NCBI GenBank assembly: GCA_963802185.1
Contig: CAWDHU010000025.1
Span: 16,997-80,996, forward strand
Direction: 5' to 3'
Length of the DNA: 64,000 nucleotides
Origin: an uncultured Bacteroidales bacterium
Lineage (GTDB): Bacteria > Bacteroidota > Bacteroidia > Bacteroidales > UBA4417
The notes under the pieces are model-generated. The model was not told the origin of the DNA and did no database searches. It saw only the letters and a program-made list of their open reading frames with translations. Shown piece by piece: positions 6,596 through 49,106 of this stretch (its first letter is position 1; every line of letters starts with the position of its first letter). Made by a program: the position numbers and the translations under genes.

Positions 6596-6763
6596 GAAAA
6601 CGGCTGAGGCTATTAGGAGTGGCTGATGACTTGATACGCTCATGCATGAGACTACTTCGCTAGGTTGCGTGGTACTTAGCTGTCAACCAACACGAACGAT
6701 TGTGCGGGCAACGAACCTTAAATTATATTTCCATACCAGCCATTTGTTATTGCCTTTGTTAGC
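6596..6763 (-). repeat. attC-like structured repeat, distal (terminal) variant of the cassette array
   Basis: The + strand reads GAAAAC-GGCTGAGGCTATTAGGAGTGGCTG ... CAGCCATTTGTTATTGCCT-TT-GTTAGC. The arms pair with G:T wobbles. The outer R box is hybrid (GTTTTC on the minus strand), as expected for the last site of an array. Confidence 0.65.
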
Positions 6764-6781
6764 AAAGGTTTTTATTCAAAT

Positions 6782-7290: not shown

Positions 7291-7379
7291 GATATTGGTT
7301 ACTTTGTACGTTTCAGAGTACAAATATAAGTACAAATAGTGGAATATTGTTATTTTGGTCAGATTTTTTTAAAACAGTT

Positions 7380-7531
7380 GCTAACGGATGACGCTATGGC
7401 AAGTGCGGGAATAAATTGTTGCTCAACTGTCTGCCAGCACGACCTGTCCCGATTTATCGGGAAATGTATGTAAAGATTTCTAATGTTTCAACGAACACGC
7501 AAACCCGCATTTGCTATAGCGTTTGTTATGG
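7380..7531 (-). repeat. attC-like structured repeat (with a 21-bp hairpin insertion)
   Basis: GCTAAC-GGATG-ACGCTATGGCAAGTGCGGG ... CCCGCATTTGCTATAGCGT-TT-GTTATGG. Relative to the other copies it has an extra CCTGTCCCGATTTATCGGGAAATG segment. Confidence 0.75.
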
Positions 7532-7569
7532 GCAGTTTTTAATTTTCTAAGGTTCTTTTTGATTTTACA

Positions 7570-8784: not shown

Positions 8785-9567
8785 CTATTCCATCTTGATA
8801 GATTTCAGTATTGTTATTAGGCTTTTAATGTTTTGATTAAAATCACCCTTTGAAAAATCAAAGTATTGAATATTTGAAAAAAGATTAGTGAGGTTTTGCG
8901 GCATTGAATTAATTGTAGAAAAAGGGTCTGTTAAAAAAATAGGAATAATATTATTTCCATAATTCCCTAATTTATGCTTATCAAGAGCATATTCTATTTC
9001 ATTTAACGAAAATTGAGAATTAATGGTCTGGTCACTTATGAGCATCAAGAAGAAACCTTCCTCAATTGTTTCATTTATTGCTGCTCTTAATTGGTCAGCC
9101 CATGGAATAGAAGTGTCTAATGACTGATAGTCTAAAAATACCGTATAATCATTTTGCTCTAATTGTACAGAAATAGCCTGAGCTTGCTTTAAGTCTTTAT
9201 GAGCATATGAAAGGAATATCGTAATTCTTTTTGACAAAGTTTTTATTCCTTCTATTTGACTGTCTACGTCATCATCCAAATTAATAACCTGATAAACTTT
9301 GTCTGGTAATGACCTTATAAAATCAATCTCTGTCTGAACCCATTTTGATTCTTTTGCATTTGTGCTATCACATAGAATAAACCAATTTCTCGCTGCGATT
9401 TCGCGTTTTATCAAGTCGTCAACTTCGGAATTATCACTTAAACATTTTAGGAAAAACAATAATGGTTTATGTCCTTTTAATTCTAATTGGTTTCTAATTT
9501 CACGGACTTTATTCCAATCTTTCAATGAATGTGAAACAAAAATCCATGCACCATTTTCATTATCCAT
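8785..9567 (-). CDS. tandem TIR-domain protein (single-gene cassette)
   Basis: 260 aa with two TIR-like modules. The first is WIFVSHSLKDWNKVREI...SKWVQTEIDF. The second is ITIFLSYAHKDLKQAQAIS...SQFSLNEIEYAL. Each has a conserved Glu at the position of the TIR catalytic Glu. Confidence 0.8.
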   Translation of the reverse strand: MDNENGAWIFVSHSLKDWNKVREIRNQLELKGHKPLLFFLKCLSDNSEVDDLIKREIAARNWFILCDSTNAKESKWVQTEIDFIRSLPDKVYQVINLDDDVDSQIEGIKTLSKRITIFLSYAHKDLKQAQAISVQLEQNDYTVFLDYQSLDTSIPWADQLRAAINETIEEGFFLMLISDQTINSQFSLNEIEYALDKHKLGNYGNNIIPIFLTDPFSTINSMPQNLTNLFSNIQYFDFSKGDFNQNIKSLITILKSIKME

Positions 9568-9637
9568 AATTCTATGTCGTTTAATTTGTTATTAGTTCTT
9601 GATTAAAACATCTTGCTGTCTGTCCGTTTTTGGCATT

Positions 9638-9880
9638 GCCCATAACGGCTGACGCTATGGCAAGTGCGGGAATAAATTGTTGCTCAACTGTCTGCCAGCA
9701 CAAATGTATATAAAGATTTCAAATGTTTCAACGAACACGCAAACCCGCATTTGCTATAGCTACGCTATGGCAAGTGCGGGAATAAATTGTTGCTCAACTG
9801 TCTGCCAGCACAAATGTATGTAAAGATTTCAAACGTTTCAACGAACACGCATACCCGCATTTGCTATAGCGTTTGTTAGC
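9638..9880 (-). repeat. two attC-like repeats fused head-to-tail (inner R boxes missing)
   Basis: Copy 1 (9638-9760) ends at ...TTGCTATAGC. Copy 2 begins immediately with TACGCTATGGCAAGTGCGGG and ends at GTTAGC 9875-9880. Confidence 0.7.
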
Positions 9881-9893
9881 TGTAGTTGTTTCT

Positions 9894-10208
9894 TTAAACC
9901 ATTAGTTTCCATAGTTGAATAAAAACCGAAATATTCGATATAATGCTCAAAAAGAGGGCAATTTGAATTGTCAGTTTCATTTCTTTTTTCCGAACTGCAA
10001 TAAGTCCGAATATTAAGGACGAAAGACCTAGAATTGAGAAGTAATATTTATAATAAAACTGGGCAATCTCAATAATTCCAAGCAATGCACGAGTCTTTCC
10101 GTCCGATAACAAATACTGTTCTGCTATTTTTCGATTCACTATGATGACTGCAATAATACAAACGATGCTTAATATTATCGACAAAGCAGAAAATCTATAC
10201 TTTTTCAT
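9894..10208 (-). CDS. hypothetical small membrane protein (cassette gene)
   Basis: 104-aa ORF with 3 predicted TM helices, placed between attC-like sites. Confidence 0.5.
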   Translation of the reverse strand: MKKYRFSALSIILSIVCIIAVIIVNRKIAEQYLLSDGKTRALLGIIEIAQFYYKYYFSILGLSSLIFGLIAVRKKEMKLTIQIALFLSIISNISVFIQLWKLMV

Positions 10209-11461: not shown

Positions 11462-11772
11462 GCCATTTGATTTTAAAGTTTGTTTTTTCTTGTCTTTCTG
11501 CCTTGTTGAAATGTGATTTCAGCCCGCAAACGAATAGATTCACTCGACTCAAAGTCTATTCTATTAGTTTTCCGTCGTTGTCAATCATAGTCGAGAAGCT
11601 AAAAATCCAATTCTTTCCATAGAAAATCTGCGAAGAATTGTCCGCCAAGCTGAATTCCGATAGTCAACAAATTCTGTCGTTACAGATTCGTCTGGTTATG
11701 TCTCGAAAGCTGACAGTTCTTCAAAGATTTTTCAACCGACAAGTCTGTCTTTTTTCTTTTTTTACAATTACA

Positions 11773-11902
11773 GCTAACGGCTGACGCTATGGCAAGTGCG
11801 GGAATAAATTGTTGCTCAACTGTCTGCCAGCACAAATGTATATAAAGATTTCAAATGTTTCAACGAACACGCAAACCCGCATTTGCTATAGCGTTTGTTA
11901 TG
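11773..11902 (-). repeat. attC-like structured repeat
   Basis: 130 bp, GCTAAC-GGCTG-ACGCTATGGCAAGTGCGGG...CCCGCATTTGCTATAGCGT-TT-GTTATG. It is nearly identical to the copies at 12638, 13389 and 14127. Confidence 0.8.
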
Positions 11903-12637
11903 CAGCAGTTTTTCATTTCTGTCAGTTATTCTCAATTATATCTTAGCATAAATTTCAAGAGTTCAAGTCTATCTGATTAATATAATTTTCATGCTGTCAA
12001 TTGTTTCAATTCTCAAATCAATGTCATAAATCAGTCAATTGAAATATCAAGTTACAATTCTTTTAATCATTAACTTCTATCCCATGAAATTCTGCAGCAA
12101 AAATCCAACTGTCCAAGTCTAGTTATTACTTCGATATTTGAATGAAAATTAGCAAGTTCAATAGTAAAAATTGAATATCTTCAGACTGTTCGATAATATC
12201 TTAAAGTAATTCATATCAATTTCTGTCAGATATATCAATTTTGTCTTGTCAATTAATTATACAATCTGACAAGTTCAGAATGCAATATTTATCGAAAACA
12301 AATCTTATTATAGATTCTGTAAGCTATCTATATCAATATCTTAAAATGCAACGCCGTATTTGATATGATCATTTGTCATAAGCAGCATTCTCTAAATCGT
12401 CTTATTCAACTCGAACTTCTCGCTGAAAGCGAATTCAAAACGAACACGACTCTTCGCTCGTTGTTGTGTCTGCATCAAGCAAACACTTCTGTCCGGCCAA
12501 AAAGCTCTCTGCGGAATTCGTCTACATTGTCAAGGTAGGAGAGAAGCCTGGATATTCAGTGAACGAAATAGAATCTTCGAACTTGGTCAAATCTTCGCTA
12601 TTTTGTTCTGTCTGTCTGGGTTTCTATACGCTGCGCT

Positions 12638-12767
12638 GCTAACGGCTGACGCTATGGCAAGTGCGGGAATAAATTGTTGCTCAACTGTCTGCCAGCACAA
12701 ATGTATGTAAAGATTTCAAATGTTTCAACGAACACGCATACCCGCATTTGCTATAGCGTTTGTTAGC
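12638..12767 (-). repeat. attC-like structured repeat
   Basis: 130-bp near-identical copy ending in GTTAGC. Confidence 0.8.
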
Positions 12768-13388
12768 GGTAGTTTTTTATTTTTTCAATTCGTCAATTCT
12801 TCATAATTTGTCTGATTCATAATGTCATGATCAATAATTCTTTCAGTATCATTCGTAAATTAATATATATCTGTCAATAATCATGCTTCAATTTGAATTA
12901 AGTCTAGTCTTATATATCAATATTCATGATAGTTCAAGTTATGTAATAAGTATTCTATATTCTCTTGTCAATTTGTATAAAGTTATCTAAGTATAGTCTC
13001 TTAGTATTATATCATTAGTAAATAATTCAATAATTATTCGTAATATGAATTCTGAATTATTCGTCCAATCTATTGATTTCGAATAGCCATTTAATATCTA
13101 TTATCAATTTCAAATTGAATTCATCATAGACTAATTTGCATGTTAATACTTGTTCAAAATATGCAAGTCATTCTCAATCAGCTATATGAATGTCTGAATT
13201 TTTCTGTCAGTAATTCAAAATTGTCATAATGCATTCTAAAGATAAGTACTTATAATTCAATTCTGAATTTGTCCAATAGTGATTTTCAATTCAATAGTTT
13301 GTCAATGTTCATTGCTTGAACAATATTTAAATGTCAATAATTGTCAATATTAATGTCTGAATTTGTCATGTTTTTTCATAAAATTGCT

Positions 13389-13518
13389 GCTAACGGCTGA
13401 CGCTATGGCAAGTGCGGGAATAAATTGTTGCTCAACTGTCTGCCAGCACAAATGTATGTAAAGATTTCAAATGTTTCAACGAACACGCAAACCCGCATTT
13501 GCTATAGCGTTTGTTAGC
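13389..13518 (-). repeat. attC-like structured repeat
   Basis: 130-bp near-identical copy ending in GTTAGC. Confidence 0.8.
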
Positions 13519-14126
13519 AGCAGTGTTTTTTTCTTTCAATGTAGTTTGCATTCCAAATTATCTTTCAAATGATTCAATCGAATTTCATAATCACGTTTTG
13601 CAATTCTAAATTTGTCAGCTGTAATCTAGTGTTTTGTCATTAATCATACTTGGATCTCATAATAGTCAAATCATTCTATGTCAATAATTACTTGTATTGT
13701 CATAATCTGTAAATTCAAGTTGTCTATAAAATCTGTCTAATGAAGTTATAATTTCATTGTCTAATCAAGTTACTGAATTGTTCATGTCAACATAATTGAG
13801 ATTGCTTTGGTATAAATTCAAGCAAACAATTTCTGTTGTCAAATTCATTCTGAATATGTCTTGATAATATTTGACAATTCCAAGTATTCAATAAATTGTC
13901 TAGTCGAATTATGTTGTATCAATAATTCTGAGATTCTCATAGTCAATACTCATGTTCTGTTAATCTGTTTAATGAATATGCTTTTGTCATGCAATAGTCT
14001 AATGAATTCTAACAATATAAGCAGAAATGTCAATGATTTCCATAATCTAATGTTTATTATGTCATAGTTCAAAATTTCAATAGTATTGATCTGTCAATAT
14101 GATTTTCTGCGGTCTTCAAAATTGCT

Positions 14127-14252
14127 GCTAACGGCTGACGCTATGGCAAGTGCGGGATTAAATTGTTGCTCAACTGTCTGCCAGCACAAATGTATGTAAA
14201 GATTTCAAATGTTTCAACGAACACGCAAACCCGCATTTGCTATAGGTTGTTT
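14127..14252 (-). repeat. attC-like structured repeat, recombinase-proximal copy with a degenerate outer box
   Basis: It has the same left box, stem and loop as the other copies. The right end reads ...GCTATAG-GTTGTTTAA instead of ...GCTATAGCGTTTGTTAGC. Confidence 0.7.
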
Positions 14253-14852
14253 AAAAAGTCGTCTTCATATTTTCGATGTTTGTTTTAACAATTACTGATA
14301 ACTAGTCTATAGCAACAAATATATACCACTTTTCAATACAAGATAAACACTTTCAAAATTATTATTTGCTCTTTTATTACCTGAATTAAATGGTTTCAAT
14401 ATGTTGTGGATTAACTACCCCCTCTCTTTACTTCAAAGAGAGGGGGCAGGGGGTGAGTTTTTTGAGTAATTCATATCTGATCACACAAACTTAATCTATT
14501 TCCTGACTTCATCACTTGGGTGCCCCAGTCGAAATTAAATACTTGAGAATCTCATAAATAACAAAAAATTGCTTTTGTGTTGTCAAATGTTCAATTCACA
14601 TGAAGTTATCACATATTTGGGTGTCCCCGCGACGAAGTCAAGAGATAAGCACACTCAAATTTATTATTTGCTTTTATTTCACATCAAATGAATGGTCTCA
14701 ATATGTTGCAGGAAAACCACCCCCCTCTTTCAAAAAAATAAATACCTTTTCCCTTCTCCTTTCAGGAAAAGGTGCCCAAAGGGCGGATGAGGTTAAGAGG
14801 GGGGCAGCGGTTGAGTTTTTTATGTTTCATATTTAATCTCTGCAAACATCTT

Positions 14853-14930
14853 CTATTTCTCAGGATATTCACCTCCAAGCACCCCCTGCATCAGGTCAAG
14901 CGGACTGATAATTTTCCTGGCTGCTTTTGG
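14853..14930 (-). pseudogene. relic of a tyrosine recombinase 3' end (last ~25 codons plus stop)
   Basis: About 85% identical to 14981-15058. The minus strand would read PKAARKIISPLDLMQGVLGGEYPEK*, against PKAARKVISPLDRMQGMLGSDDPEK* in the intact gene. Confidence 0.7.
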
Positions 14931-14980
14931 GGCAGGGGGTGAGTTTTTTAAGTTTCATATTCAATCTCTATAAACATATT

Positions 14981-16717
14981 CTATTTCTCAGGATCATCAC
15001 TTCCAAGCATCCCCTGCATCCTGTCAAGCGGACTGATAACCTTCCGGGCTGCTTTTGGCAAAATATGAGTGTATACCATCGTCGTTTTAATATTCGTATG
15101 CCCCAGCAATTGCTGTATATACCGGATATCTGTCCCGTTCTCCAGCAGATGCGTGGCAAAACTATGCCTTAGCGTGTGTACACTGGCTTTCTTCTCCAGG
15201 CCTGCTTTTTCAACAGCTTGGCGCATCACATTTTGAACCGTGCCCGTACTTAAAGCTTCACCTTTATACTGCCCGGCAAAAACCCATTCGTCGGGAGGAT
15301 AGATTTTCCGGTAATCTTCGAGGTAAGCTACAATAGAGTAGGGGAGCATCACCACCCGGTCCTTATTGCCTTTGCTTTGCCTCACAAAAATTTTATGTTC
15401 ATCAAAGGAAATATCAACCCATTTCAACCCTACAATTTCACTTCGGCGCAGACCCGCTCCATAACCTAACAATAAAAGCAACTTATGCTTCGGATTTACA
15501 ACCTGGCTGAAAATACGCGAACACTCATCAAATGTAAGTACCACGGGTATTTTGTCCTCATCCCTGGGACGCGGAAGCTTGATTTCAAAACTGTCGCGAT
15601 GCAGCACCGTGCGGAAATAAAACTGTAACGAATTAATCACCATATTAACACTCGATACCGAAAGACCTTGTTCAACCTTCATGGCCAGGTGCCGCACAAT
15701 CTGTCTTTCAGTTAACGAGTCAGGACTCTGATATTCGTTAAAACGCAAAAATAAATTGAAAGCACTTACATAATTCCTGATCGAACTGCTACTGTAATTC
15801 ATAGCTGTCATATAGTCGATCATGGCAAGGGTGTAGGTGTGAACCATTACAGGAACCTGCTTCAGCAAGGCTTCCCGCATCCCTTTAAGTTGTGTGGCTT
15901 TTTTATTCAGGGCTTTGGACTTACGCAGATACCCTTGTGGCAAATTGCTCTGAACACGTATATTGAGTTTGTTGGCAAGTTCCTGCAGGTTTTCGAAAAT
16001 CACCGGCGTAGCATTCAGCACATAAGCTTCGAGCGCCGGGCTGTACCTGCTCCCTTGCCAGCGCCTCACCTCTTCCAGCAAAAACGGCACTTTCGGGCAA
16101 CGCAATACCATCCAACGCTTGTCGGCAGCATACGCATCCAGTTCAATAACGGTGTTTTCGTTAACAATAATTTCGGCAGCATCAAAGTAATTTTCCGGAA
16201 ACAGAACACCCGAATCCAGCAGCGCTTCAACTTTGATTTTCGTATTTACATGCCTGAAAACAAAGAAAGCCTTATGCTCCTTATTCCAGAACACCCCTTT
16301 AATATCCATCAACTTGCGCGAGAGATCTTCTTTGTATGGAACCTGCAGTATCCAATACTTTCCCACGCTTCCTTTGTAAACAATTTTGGCCGCAAATTCA
16401 GGGTCCGGGCCCTTATGTTCAACCGGCAAAGCAGGTTGAAGTTCGCTGATTGCCTCAGCTATGTGAACAATTTCATGCTGTATTACAGCAGGTTCAGGTG
16501 GCGGCTGATTGTTTTCGTCTTTCAGTATTTCAACTTCCCCAAAGGTAAGCAATATTCGCTCATAATTCACCTTGTTGTACAATAAATACCAACAAGTATG
16601 GGTTTGACTCCATCGTGCGTCAAGGCTCCTGGCTTTTTGCTTCAGCTCATTATCAAATCCAAAATATAACGCAATCTGGTAATCACCCCTGTGATAAAAC
16701 TTCCTGATTTGTATCAT
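14981..16717 (-). CDS. tyrosine site-specific recombinase (Xer-like catalytic domain with a ~300-aa N-terminal extension)
   Basis: Catalytic signature: GAGLRRSE (Arg), KGNKDR (Lys), HTLRHSFATHLL (His-x-x-Arg), LLGHTNIKTTMVYTHI (His...Tyr). ATG 16717 (MIQIRKFYHRGD) is preferred to the 16774 start. It is co-oriented with the cassette ORFs. Confidence 0.88.
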   Translation of the reverse strand: MIQIRKFYHRGDYQIALYFGFDNELKQKARSLDARWSQTHTCWYLLYNKVNYERILLTFGEVEILKDENNQPPPEPAVIQHEIVHIAEAISELQPALPVEHKGPDPEFAAKIVYKGSVGKYWILQVPYKEDLSRKLMDIKGVFWNKEHKAFFVFRHVNTKIKVEALLDSGVLFPENYFDAAEIIVNENTVIELDAYAADKRWMVLRCPKVPFLLEEVRRWQGSRYSPALEAYVLNATPVIFENLQELANKLNIRVQSNLPQGYLRKSKALNKKATQLKGMREALLKQVPVMVHTYTLAMIDYMTAMNYSSSSIRNYVSAFNLFLRFNEYQSPDSLTERQIVRHLAMKVEQGLSVSSVNMVINSLQFYFRTVLHRDSFEIKLPRPRDEDKIPVVLTFDECSRIFSQVVNPKHKLLLLLGYGAGLRRSEIVGLKWVDISFDEHKIFVRQSKGNKDRVVMLPYSIVAYLEDYRKIYPPDEWVFAGQYKGEALSTGTVQNVMRQAVEKAGLEKKASVHTLRHSFATHLLENGTDIRYIQQLLGHTNIKTTMVYTHILPKAARKVISPLDRMQGMLGSDDPEK

Positions 16718-16816: not shown

Positions 16817-16966
16817 TCATCAGTTGAGCCTATTATAAGTGGCGGATTACGTGATACTTAACTATCATTCAACACAGCCTGTCCCGATATATCGGGAAAT
16901 GCTTGTGCGGGCGACAAAGCTTCAATTATGTTTCCAAACCCACCATTTGTTATAGTCTTTGTCGGC
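16817..16966 (-). repeat. attC-like structured element, degenerate variant upstream of the recombinase gene
   Basis: About 75% similar to 6596-6763. Shared segments are TTGAG.CTATTA..AGTGGC.G, TTGTGCGGGC.AC.AA and CCATTTGTTAT. The arms pair, but both R boxes are degenerate (TCATCA / GTCGGC). It contains the CCTGTCCCGATATATCGGGAAATG hairpin. Confidence 0.55.
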
Positions 16967-16976
16967 ATCTCGTTAT

Positions 16977-17824
16977 TTATTCTTCTGGGGCACTTAATTC
17001 CTTGTCTTCTCTTAGCCCAAGTTTTTTAGCATTAAGTGGGCTTAACACACTATTTCCTAATTTCTCTTCTAATTCCTTTCTTGCATTGCCCGCTACTGCT
17101 CCTCCTTTTCGAGCGATCAATTTATTTTCGGGAAAAGTCTTTGGCTTATGTTTTTTCGAAAGTTCAGTCGTTGATGTTTCAGCTAACATATTTAGCACCA
17201 ATTCCAAATTAGTCATGTTATCTCTAAGATTCTCTTTTTTGAGATCCTTGAAACCTTTATATTCTTTAGTCGTAAATCCTGCCCATGCTTTTGTAATCTC
17301 GTCAGTAAGAATCGCATACTCTACCCCCTTGTTAACACCTCGGTTTTCCCATTCATCAGTTAACTCTTTTCTGACCTCAATGCTTTTTAGCCGTTGATTG
17401 ATCCAGTTTTTGAATATCCTTTTTTCAAATATGTTTCCATTGCTCTATCAAAGGCAATTTCAGGGTCTTCTGTTTCTTCAATACGCTCATATCCAACTTT
17501 TGCTAACCAAACCTTAAAAGGTTCAGCTTTTGGTGAAGGTATTGATTGTATTAATCTTAATAATTGTTCTGTATCTGCAACATCTGTTTTGTAATATTTG
17601 CCATCAGCTGATTTCATTTTCAGTTGACTACAATTTGTAGCCAACTGACTTCCTTCTTGTTTAAGTCTTGTTTTTAATACACTCCAATATTTTCTGGGGT
17701 TCGGGCTTTCAGTTAATATTCCTATGATATCAACAATTGAAAAAAACCACTTTTCCCGGTCTTCATCCCATAGTACTCTAACTTTTTGGTCCTGGAATAA
17801 TCTTATTGCATTTTCTTTTGTCAT
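16977..17824 (-). pseudogene. Bro-N domain / DinD-like DNA-damage-inducible protein, frameshifted
   Basis: The 145-aa N-terminal ORF is Bro-N-like (...KVRVLWDEDREKWFFSIVDIIGILTES...). It stops at ...KKGYSKTGSING. A second frame, open from ~17445, continues KNWINQRLKSIEVRKELTDEWENRG... to 16977. An A6/T6 run at 17418-17427 lies at the junction. Confidence 0.65.
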
Positions 17825-18068
17825 ATTTTATCAAATAAGGATATTCAAAGATAATCAATCATTTCAAAATAGATATTCTATTGCAATGCCATTTTTACAA
17901 TGAATGCCAACTCATTTGTAGTGAAAACTATACTTCTTTAAAATTTGTGGTTTCAGTAATATAGGAATAAAATAATGGGTCAAATGGCGCGATAACAAAC
18001 TTTTGTTTCTTTTGTGTTTCAAAAAAAGTTTACTACAAAAGACATAAAAGGGAATATCCCACAATCTG

Positions 18069-49023: not shown

Positions 49024-49106
49024 TACCCCGGGCCGGAATCGAACCGGCACGAACAGAGTTCATCGGTTTTTGAGACCGACGCGTCTACCAATTCCGCCAC
49101 CGGGGC
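49024..49106 (-). tRNA. tRNA-Leu (anticodon CAA), class II with a long variable arm
   Basis: The minus strand reads GCCCCGG-TG-GCGGAATTGGTAGACGC-G-TCGGT-CTCAAAA-ACCGA-TGAACTCTGTTCGT-GCCGGTTCGATTCCGGC-CCGGGGT-A. It aligns arm by arm with E. coli tRNA-Leu(CAA). CCA is not encoded. Confidence 0.93.

Follow-up and report, generated by a model that had tools for sequence, protein, structure and literature searches.

Joins of tandem duplications at repetitive extragenic palindromic (REP) elements are known from enterobacteria, in which slipped misalignment takes place at hairpins or REP-like sequences. Integron integrases (IntI), in turn, reportedly possess an additional specific domain near patch III, as described by Messier and Roy in 2001. 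In the inverted integron-integrase group, which is represented in chromosomal integrons such as those of Treponema spp., the recombinase gene is co-oriented with the cassettes and attI is located by its 3′ end (PMC4889954). The profile intI_Cterm corresponds to the IntI-specific domain, and recombinases that lack this domain and lie near attC sites have been judged not to be IntI (PMC4889954). Here we analyse a stretch of 64,000 nucleotides (hereafter the window) of contig CAWDHU010000025.1 from an uncultured Bacteroidales bacterium, in which the gene of an integron-like recombinase is followed by stacked copies of its own 3′ end. The tract that contains these copies, at positions 14341-15056, is an expanded spacer between the recombinase gene and an attI-like site. 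The stacked tails are probably, in our judgement, a neutral variable tandem repeat that would have arisen by hairpin-associated replication slippage or unequal exchange. Literature searches returned no account of the recombinase family or of integrons with gene ends duplicated in this way.

Stacked copies of the gene tail and their variation among relatives

The recombinase gene (14981-16717, minus strand), taken from the list of open reading frames (ORFs), encodes 578 amino acids, and its start at 16717 (MIQIRKF) is backed by a 100% match to P0001. The end of this gene is part of a head-to-tail pair of 128-nt units (14801-14928 and 14929-15056), which have a start-to-start spacing of 128 nt and are 88% identical. 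Both units begin with GGGGCAG(C/G)GG(T/G)TGAGTTTTTT and finish with GCTGCTTTTGG; Tandem Repeats Finder reports a period of 128 with 2.0 copies and 87% matches (score 404), and self-BLAST aligns them at 87.7% over 130 nt (E 1e-41). Read on the minus strand, each unit contains the final 24 codons and the stop codon of the recombinase (from K555, ...PKAARK...), followed by 53 nt of downstream sequence. Copy 0 (14929-15056, minus strand) is the working gene end: the last 24 codons with TAG (14981-15055) are followed by 32 nt of spacer and then by the motif AAAAAACTCACCCCCTGCCCC. Copy 1 (14801-14928, minus strand) repeats copy 0 head to tail and is 87.5% identical to it, with zero nt between the two and with the join CTGCCCC/AAAAGCAG (here and below a stroke marks a join or boundary). 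It is a pseudo gene end with a degraded motif, CTCAACCGCTGCCCC, in which the frame is still open and the position of TAG is kept (KAARKIISPLDLMQGVLGGEYPEK, then stop), with 6 amino-acid changes. The extra copies have no start codon and are located past the stop codon of the gene.

Farther from the gene, the tract repeats itself once more. Copy 2 (14443-14530, minus strand), the oldest and only partial copy, still has TAG and approximately the 10 codons before it, together with the spacer and the motif AAAAAACTCACCCCCTGCCCC in intact form, and is ~78% identical to copy 0; self-BLAST covers 14443-14517 at 77-78% (E 6e-11 and 4e-7), and the extension to ~14530 was made by eye. Block A (14341-14422, minus strand) is the AT-rich spacer from hairpin A to attI, and block B (14643-14724, minus strand) is the AT-rich spacer beyond hairpin B; over 82 nt these blocks are 77% identical (self-BLAST over 89 nt, E 1e-16). 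Between block B and copy 2 lies segment X (14531-14642, no strand assigned), a filler of about 112-125 nt. From the gene outward the order is thus copy 0, copy 1, hairpin B, block B, segment X, copy 2, hairpin A and block A, and the decay of the copies grows with distance from the gene. Segment X, compared from 14518 to 14642, displays no significant similarity to the 3′ part of the gene, the units, attI or the first cassette (p 0.2-0.9 against shuffles), and its interpretation as a decayed attI was rejected on the lack of significant similarity to that site. The motif GGGGCAGGGGGTGAG is found in only three places in the 64 kb, all of them in the tract, and this confinement excludes a chance origin of the repeats; the 128-nt tandem repeat is confirmed as real. 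An Rfam scan of the window had a tRNA at 49024-49106 as its sole match and none in the tract. Most of this layout had been proposed in the initial annotation, namely direct repeats of ~128 bp at ~85% identity (87-88% by both programs), each made of ~50 nt of downstream sequence and the last 25 codons (53 nt and the last 24 codons with the stop), a third and more diverged copy at ~14443-14530 (shorter, ~78%), a larger period of ~300 bp (block A against block B), C-rich/G-rich hairpins after the blocks (hairpins A and B, by folding) and progressive decay of the duplicates in the stretch that separates the gene from its nearest attC-like site.

Hairpin A (14418-14446, minus strand) is a clean 12-bp hairpin, CCCCCTCTCTTT-5 nt-AAAGAGAGGGGG, with a fold of -27.8 kcal/mol (z -5.5). 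Its sequence is kept in three of the relatives described below (L002, L003 and L164) and partly in a fourth (L083), and the version in L164 folds at -31.5 kcal/mol (z -3.9). Hairpin A is probably a terminator or insulator after the recombinase gene, which could shield the gene from the cassette promoter at attI. Hairpin B (14720-14804, minus strand) has the arms CCCCCCTCTT and AAGAGGGGGG with ~65 nt between them and folds at -45 kcal/mol (z -3.4). The fold of the whole tract has a z of -6.3, which is chiefly due to these two GC hairpins. Part of this insert, at 14748-14801, is a short GC-rich element (...CCTTTCAGGAAAAGGTGCCCAAAGGGCGGATGAGG...), which marine metagenomes commonly contain. In the marine metagenome runs X2 and X4 this element is covered 47-72x versus ~4x in its flanks, and owing to this difference it is considered a widespread short repeat; it occurs a single time in the window and is absent from every fetched locus. 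Two candidate properties of the unit were rejected. Conserved RNA structure, in which GCAGGGG of the gene would pair with CCCCTGC of the motif, yielded a weak consensus fold over six units (-7.3 kcal/mol) with zero compensatory pairs, and the motif was ruled out as a genome-wide REP, being present at this locus only in the 64 kb and at the orthologous place only in relatives.

Relatives were fetched from genomes and metagenomes and their downstream flanks were read; the family loci compared are L001-L024, L081-L088 and L159-L167. The family, with more than 280 matches in Bacteroidota, comprises IntI/Xer-like recombinases of ~578 amino acids that have an extra N-terminal region of ~300 amino acids and no IntI-specific domain. 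Its genes are followed within 40-140 nt by a conserved ...ACTA/GTT site and then by attC-like arrays. A GC-rich module, consisting of the motif CTCACCCCCTGCCCC and then the 12-bp hairpin, is located between the stop codon and attI in one subclade only (the window, L163, L083, L002, which is the same as L085, L003 and L164-167), whose members have a protein tail of the GSDD/GGDD type. The module is absent from L160, L082, L084, L001, L086, L161, L162 and all Prolixibacteraceae members examined.

Within the subclade, the number of extra tail units ranges from 0 to ~4 per genome, the units are 84-128 nt long and their join points differ. One extra unit of ~84 nt is present in L002, L003 has a period of 88 with 2.4 copies, and L164 has a period of 104 with 3.7 copies at 90% identity. 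In L164 the stop codon is lost and the product has 604 amino acids: the recombinase (295-2109) reads 26 codons into the first unit, and the same protein is encoded in four independent assemblies. Whatever the lineage, each unit finishes within the hairpin's 5′ arm or right at it, with CTGCCCC in the window and CCCCCTCTCTT(T) in L002, L003 and L164. The joins of these three loci follow CCCCCTCTCTT(T) and restart near codons D565-M567, and the full hairpin is present in the last unit alone; the young join of the window falls on the opening bases of the arm and restarts at K555. In the closest relative, L163 (96% identical in amino acids and 90% in nucleotides), ...CTCACCCCCTGCCCC/CTGCCCC runs straight into CTCTCTTT and not into AAAAGCAG. 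The junction of the window is therefore private, since it is missing in L163 and different in L002, L003 and L164, and a contig of run X4 that joins 14468 to 14953 represents a relative with one unit and without this junction. The comparison of copy number with related loci that had been suggested at the outset accordingly gave numbers and junctions that differ among relatives. Several of the relatives' assemblies end within this tract, and many break inside it, as is expected for repeats.

Whereas copy 0 and copy 1 are 87.5% identical to each other, copy 0 is 83.8% and copy 1 is 76.2% identical to L163. Either copy is 64-84% identical to the gene end of any relative, which is less than the two are to each other, and no other allele comes as near to copy 1 as copy 0 does. 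The distances between copy 0, copy 1 and L163 indicate that it was in this lineage that copy 1 arose from copy 0. Since then copy 1 has been changing approximately four times faster, with a branch of ~10% versus ~2% for copy 0. Its changes affect 10 of 75 pseudo-coding and 7 of 53 spacer nucleotides, are evenly spread and are mostly non-synonymous, and this even density together with the prevalence of non-synonymous changes points to neutral decay. The extra copies as a whole appear unconstrained, except for the better-kept 21-nt motif.

The recombinase and its attI-like site

An attI-like primary site is located at 14300-14340 on the minus strand, where it reads AAAAGTGGTATATATTTGTTGCTATAGACTA/GTT (also given as TTGAAAAGTGGTATATATTTGTTGCTATAGACTA/GTT) and includes the promoter-like TATATTTG. 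The sequence common to the downstream flanks of all relatives is AAAAGT..TATA..TTTG....ACTA/GTT, and in the window the attI-like sequence has a single exact match. Over 18 loci the information content amounts to 1.54-1.86 bits per column in the 30 nt before GTT and to 0.57-0.68 after it, and GTT itself is invariant; among ten close relatives the values are 1.86 bits per column in the 30 nt before GTT and 0.68 in the 25 nt after it. It is because conservation across the 18 loci stops at GTT that 14300-14340 is assigned as attI-like. After GTT a different cassette follows at each locus, with A or G as its first base, like the right-hand boxes of attC. Crossover, and with it the insertion of cassettes, would be expected at GTT (14300-14302). 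The distance from this GTT to the stop codon is 40-138 nt in loci without the module, 40-500 nt over the 18 relatives and 679 nt in the window. The -7 promoter consensus of Bacteroidetes is TAnnTTTG, and TATATTTG (14307-14314, minus strand), which is located in the left part of attI 13 nt before GTT, is what we take to be an exact match to this consensus. The putative cassette promoter thus probably sits at TATATTTG, inside the attI-like site.

The predicted protein is an IntI/Xer-like tyrosine recombinase, and its catalytic Tyr lies within ...TTMVYTHILPKAARK.... Pfam detects Phage_integrase (PF00589, 1e-42) and SAM_4. The top NCBIfam match is the integron integrase family TIGR02249 with 228.7 bits, which is under the cut-off of 265 and split into two stretches. 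By sequence, the best PDB matches are VchIntIA (2a3v, Vibrio IntI4) and then archaeal XerA-type recombinases, and a fold search returns the same set. The alignment to VchIntIA 2a3v is also split, with query residues 469-491 (23 amino acids) in place of chain residues 180-244 (65 amino acids), which hold the IntI-specific domain; judged by this alignment, the recombinase is without that domain. Its N-terminal extension of ~300 amino acids is predicted as three beta-beta-alpha-beta-beta-alpha repeats. A fold search with a model of the whole protein gave recombinase matches only and none for the N-terminal region, and an exact look-up of the protein returned no record.

The gene is a mosaic of alleles. 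As a whole it is closest to L160 (86% in nucleotides), with nucleotides 1-450 closest to L159/L082 (86-89%), nucleotides 451-750 closest to L160 (93-95%) and the last 100 nt closest to L002/L083/L003 (86-88%, versus 80% for L160). This mosaic suggests that alleles of the platform often undergo homologous exchange with one another, and the grouping of the last 100 nt with the module-bearing alleles suggests that the module and the gene tail move together by such exchange. The mosaic boundary does not coincide with the duplication point K555.

On the far side of attI, seven attC-like hairpin repeats of 155 nt, from 14272 down to 7364, separate small ORFs on the minus strand. The first of the array, identified by repeat families, is at 14111-14272 (minus strand), and the others are at 13373-13534, 12622-12783, 11757-11918, 9735-9896, 9625-9786 and 7364-7546. 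Their consensus fold has the outer boxes GCTAAC/GTTAGC, an 18-bp inner stem and two G.T wobbles on the plus strand only, and similar attC-like arrays follow the recombinase gene in distant family members. Two of the repeats overlap at 9625-9896, where their starts are 110 nt apart and the right stem of one repeat is fused with the left half of the next; this doubled or hybrid site has no cassette between its parts. In a Prolixibacteraceae member (L015, 16211-16660) a 75-nt unit is repeated ~5 times in tandem inside one attC-like site, another instance, within these arrays, of a hairpin-forming site that has expanded locally in tandem. The cassette at 8785-9567 (minus strand) encodes a protein of 260 amino acids with a TIR domain (TIR_2, 7e-30; ThsB-like, 7e-10) and is a candidate anti-phage defence cassette. 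Cassette-like material is present upstream of the recombinase gene as well, at 16830-17935. One part of it, at 16830-16967, is an attC-like repeat of a second type, to which 6695-6764 is related; the others are a Bro-N gene with a frameshift (16977-17824) and, at ~17901-17935, a sequence that weakly resembles attI and ends in ...AAATGAGTT. In L159 the same Bro-N cassette is located downstream of the recombinase gene, with no attI there.

Origin of the stacked tails

How could slippage at a hairpin produce such a tract? A replication fork would stall at the hairpin, and the nascent strand would re-pair upstream, or the template would be switched, resulting in a tandem duplication in place; once two units exist, unequal exchange could alter their number. 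The lineage saw at least two duplication events. In the older event the gene tail, motif, hairpin and block would have been duplicated together, leaving copy 2, hairpin A and block A, which are ~22% diverged. In the younger event only the last 24 codons, the spacer and the motif would have been duplicated, giving copy 1, which is 12% diverged. The initial annotation had proposed repeated recombination or replacement events at one point; the identity between copies 0 and 1, which exceeds that of either to the gene end of any relative, fits a duplication in place better than a replacement by incoming alleles.

Several aspects weigh against this account. Slippage is a process that sequence does not demonstrate, and the microhomology at the young join is only 4 nt, TGCC, which is common to both parental sites (TTTTGCC/AAAAG and CCCTGCCCC/CTCTC) and could be due to chance; at the older joins the decay is too advanced for microhomology to be read. 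Segment X is not accounted for by the duplication model. Copy 0 and copy 2 agree at 21 of 21 positions of the motif AAAAAACTCACCCCCTGCCCC, whereas the remainder of copy 2 is ~70-78% identical, and this hints at constraint or gene conversion, neither of which is predicted by a purely neutral model. A simple terminator scan called no canonical terminator in the tract, and the T-run of hairpin A is weak. Finally, the runs examined contain no read across the 14928/14929 junction or across 14873-14925, apart from 3 nt of one X3 unitig.

The hint of constraint leads directly to the question of whether the units are functional, either as extra sites for binding of the recombinase, for instance by its three-repeat N-terminal region, in the style of DR1/DR2 or of the lambda Int arm sites, or as a length-variable 3′ untranslated region or insulator whose number of units tunes expression of the recombinase or of the cassettes. 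On the one hand, the 21-nt motif is far better kept than the remainder of each unit, the large N-terminal extension is predicted as three repeats, and the arrays recur in several lineages. On the other hand, most family members are without module or units, even L160, L082, L161 and L162, which are 85-90% identical and have attI 40-60 nt past the stop codon; the motif is unlike the boxes of attI or attC, the pseudo-coding parts decay, and covariation that would back a conserved RNA structure in the unit is zero. We consider a function of this kind unlikely. It is less likely still, and should be read as a speculation, that the tract is a control element, the motif and hairpin of an undescribed integron class with a recombinase that has three N-terminal repeats and no IntI domain. 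In this class the number of units would act as a heritable and rapidly changing dial on read-through of recombinase transcription into attI and the cassettes or on the positioning of the recombinase at attI, and unequal exchange could bring in-frame pseudo-tails into the gene and so alter the C-terminal tail past the catalytic Tyr. A comparably small likelihood is assigned to replacement of the gene end, whereby incoming strain DNA, joined by homology on one side and illegitimately on the other, would have left the resident end behind as copy 1 and, earlier, as copy 2. The mosaic structure of the recombinase gene, in which the GSDD/GGDD tail type travels with the hairpin module, is in favour of such replacement, but no known allele is as near to copy 1 as copy 0 is, K555 lies away from the mosaic boundary, and repeated replacement leaves the true multi-copy arrays of relatives, with units that are ~90% identical, without explanation.

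The initial annotation regarded GCTTTTGG as a shared recombination point and placed an attI-like site there, inside the 3′ end of the gene. In its fuller form this explanation assumes that the recombinase itself produced site-specific or illegitimate events at GCTTTTGG, used as a primary or secondary site. Integron integrases can use secondary sites, the tract adjoins the true attI, and the homology of the two young copies ends exactly at GCTTTTGG. However, the junction is private to this genome, being absent from L163 and different in L002, L003 and L164, none of the junctions has a GTT/AAC box, no inserted body lies between copies 0 and 1, and the comparison of 18 loci places attI elsewhere, at 14300-14340, with its GTT ~630 nt away. 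Events made by the recombinase at this point are therefore very unlikely, and the extra copies, as far as these comparisons reach, are not the recombination site. The least credible explanation, with hardly any probability, is that the assembly falsely joined two strain variants in tandem. The contig is of the metagenome type, no read spans the junction and the relatives' assemblies break here; but the 12% difference between the copies makes a duplication produced by the assembly unlikely, and the exact run of 11 nt at the join is too short to mislead a k-mer assembler. In addition, unitigs of the public run X1 match 14393-14872 exactly, including bases specific to copy 1, and put copy 1 beside hairpin B, and independent assemblies of relatives have the same kind of array.

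Taken as hairpin-associated tandem duplication, the tract alone represents ordinary genome instability, and it corrects the misreading that duplicates of a gene end mark a recombination site. It also explains why assemblies break just past the recombinase gene, and it offers a natural length marker for the discrimination of strains. Beyond that, it points to the real attI-like site and the likely promoter of a cassette platform that is widespread in Bacteroidota and that standard integron finders would miss, because its recombinase is without the IntI signature domain. The recombinase family and its attI are more notable than the duplicates, which are of low to moderate interest.

Comparison with described systems

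The closest counterpart of the platform is the inverted integron-integrase group. Both have the same gene orientation with attI beside the 3′ end of the gene, uniform attC-like hairpins that end in GTT boxes, and small cassettes of mostly unknown function (one with TIR in the window). Unlike that group, the recombinase of the window is without the IntI-specific domain, has the extra N-terminal region of ~300 amino acids and scores below the cut-offs for integron integrases. Of the characteristics that identify an integron, a catalytic domain of the IntI/Xer group, attC sites as imperfect palindromes that fold into hairpins and have outer boxes of the type RYYYAAC/GTTRRRY, and an attI at which conservation ends at GTT are present, and the defining IntI-specific domain is absent. 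Rules of the IntegronFinder type would call the array a CALIN (cluster of attC sites lacking integron integrases). The platform appears to be integron-like in its working and should not be filed as a canonical integron.

The duplicates can likewise be set against the repeats and scars that are known near recombination sites. Like DR1 and DR2 of attI1 in class 1 integrons, they are direct repeats on the integrase side of attI; unlike these, they consist of a gene tail and a GC-rich motif that has no relation to the core of attI and no GTT/AAC box, and they are missing from most family members, so that they do not qualify as accessory repeats of attI. With the gene-end scars of attL/attR type, which result from the integration of islands or phages into the 3′ end of tRNA or protein genes, they share a working gene end that is followed by displaced, diverged copies. 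They differ from such scars in having 0 nt between copies 0 and 1, ~280 gene-free nt between copies 1 and 2 and junctions that are not shared; no inserted element is present and no junction is common to the carriers, and integration is not indicated.

The strongest likeness is to the repeats produced by slippage at REP elements or hairpins, which also have head-to-tail units with a GC-rich palindrome at their ends, a variable number of units and decaying extra copies; their short microhomology at the join may have a counterpart in TGCC. Two differences are highlighted: the units described here hold 10-24 codons from the end of a gene and are located in the spacer between an integron-like recombinase and attI, and the palindrome is not genome-wide in the available 64 kb. 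The number and length of the units vary between close relatives, as in a variable tandem repeat, and the duplicates are thus a known kind of event, a hairpin- or REP-associated tandem duplication that gives rise to a variable repeat.

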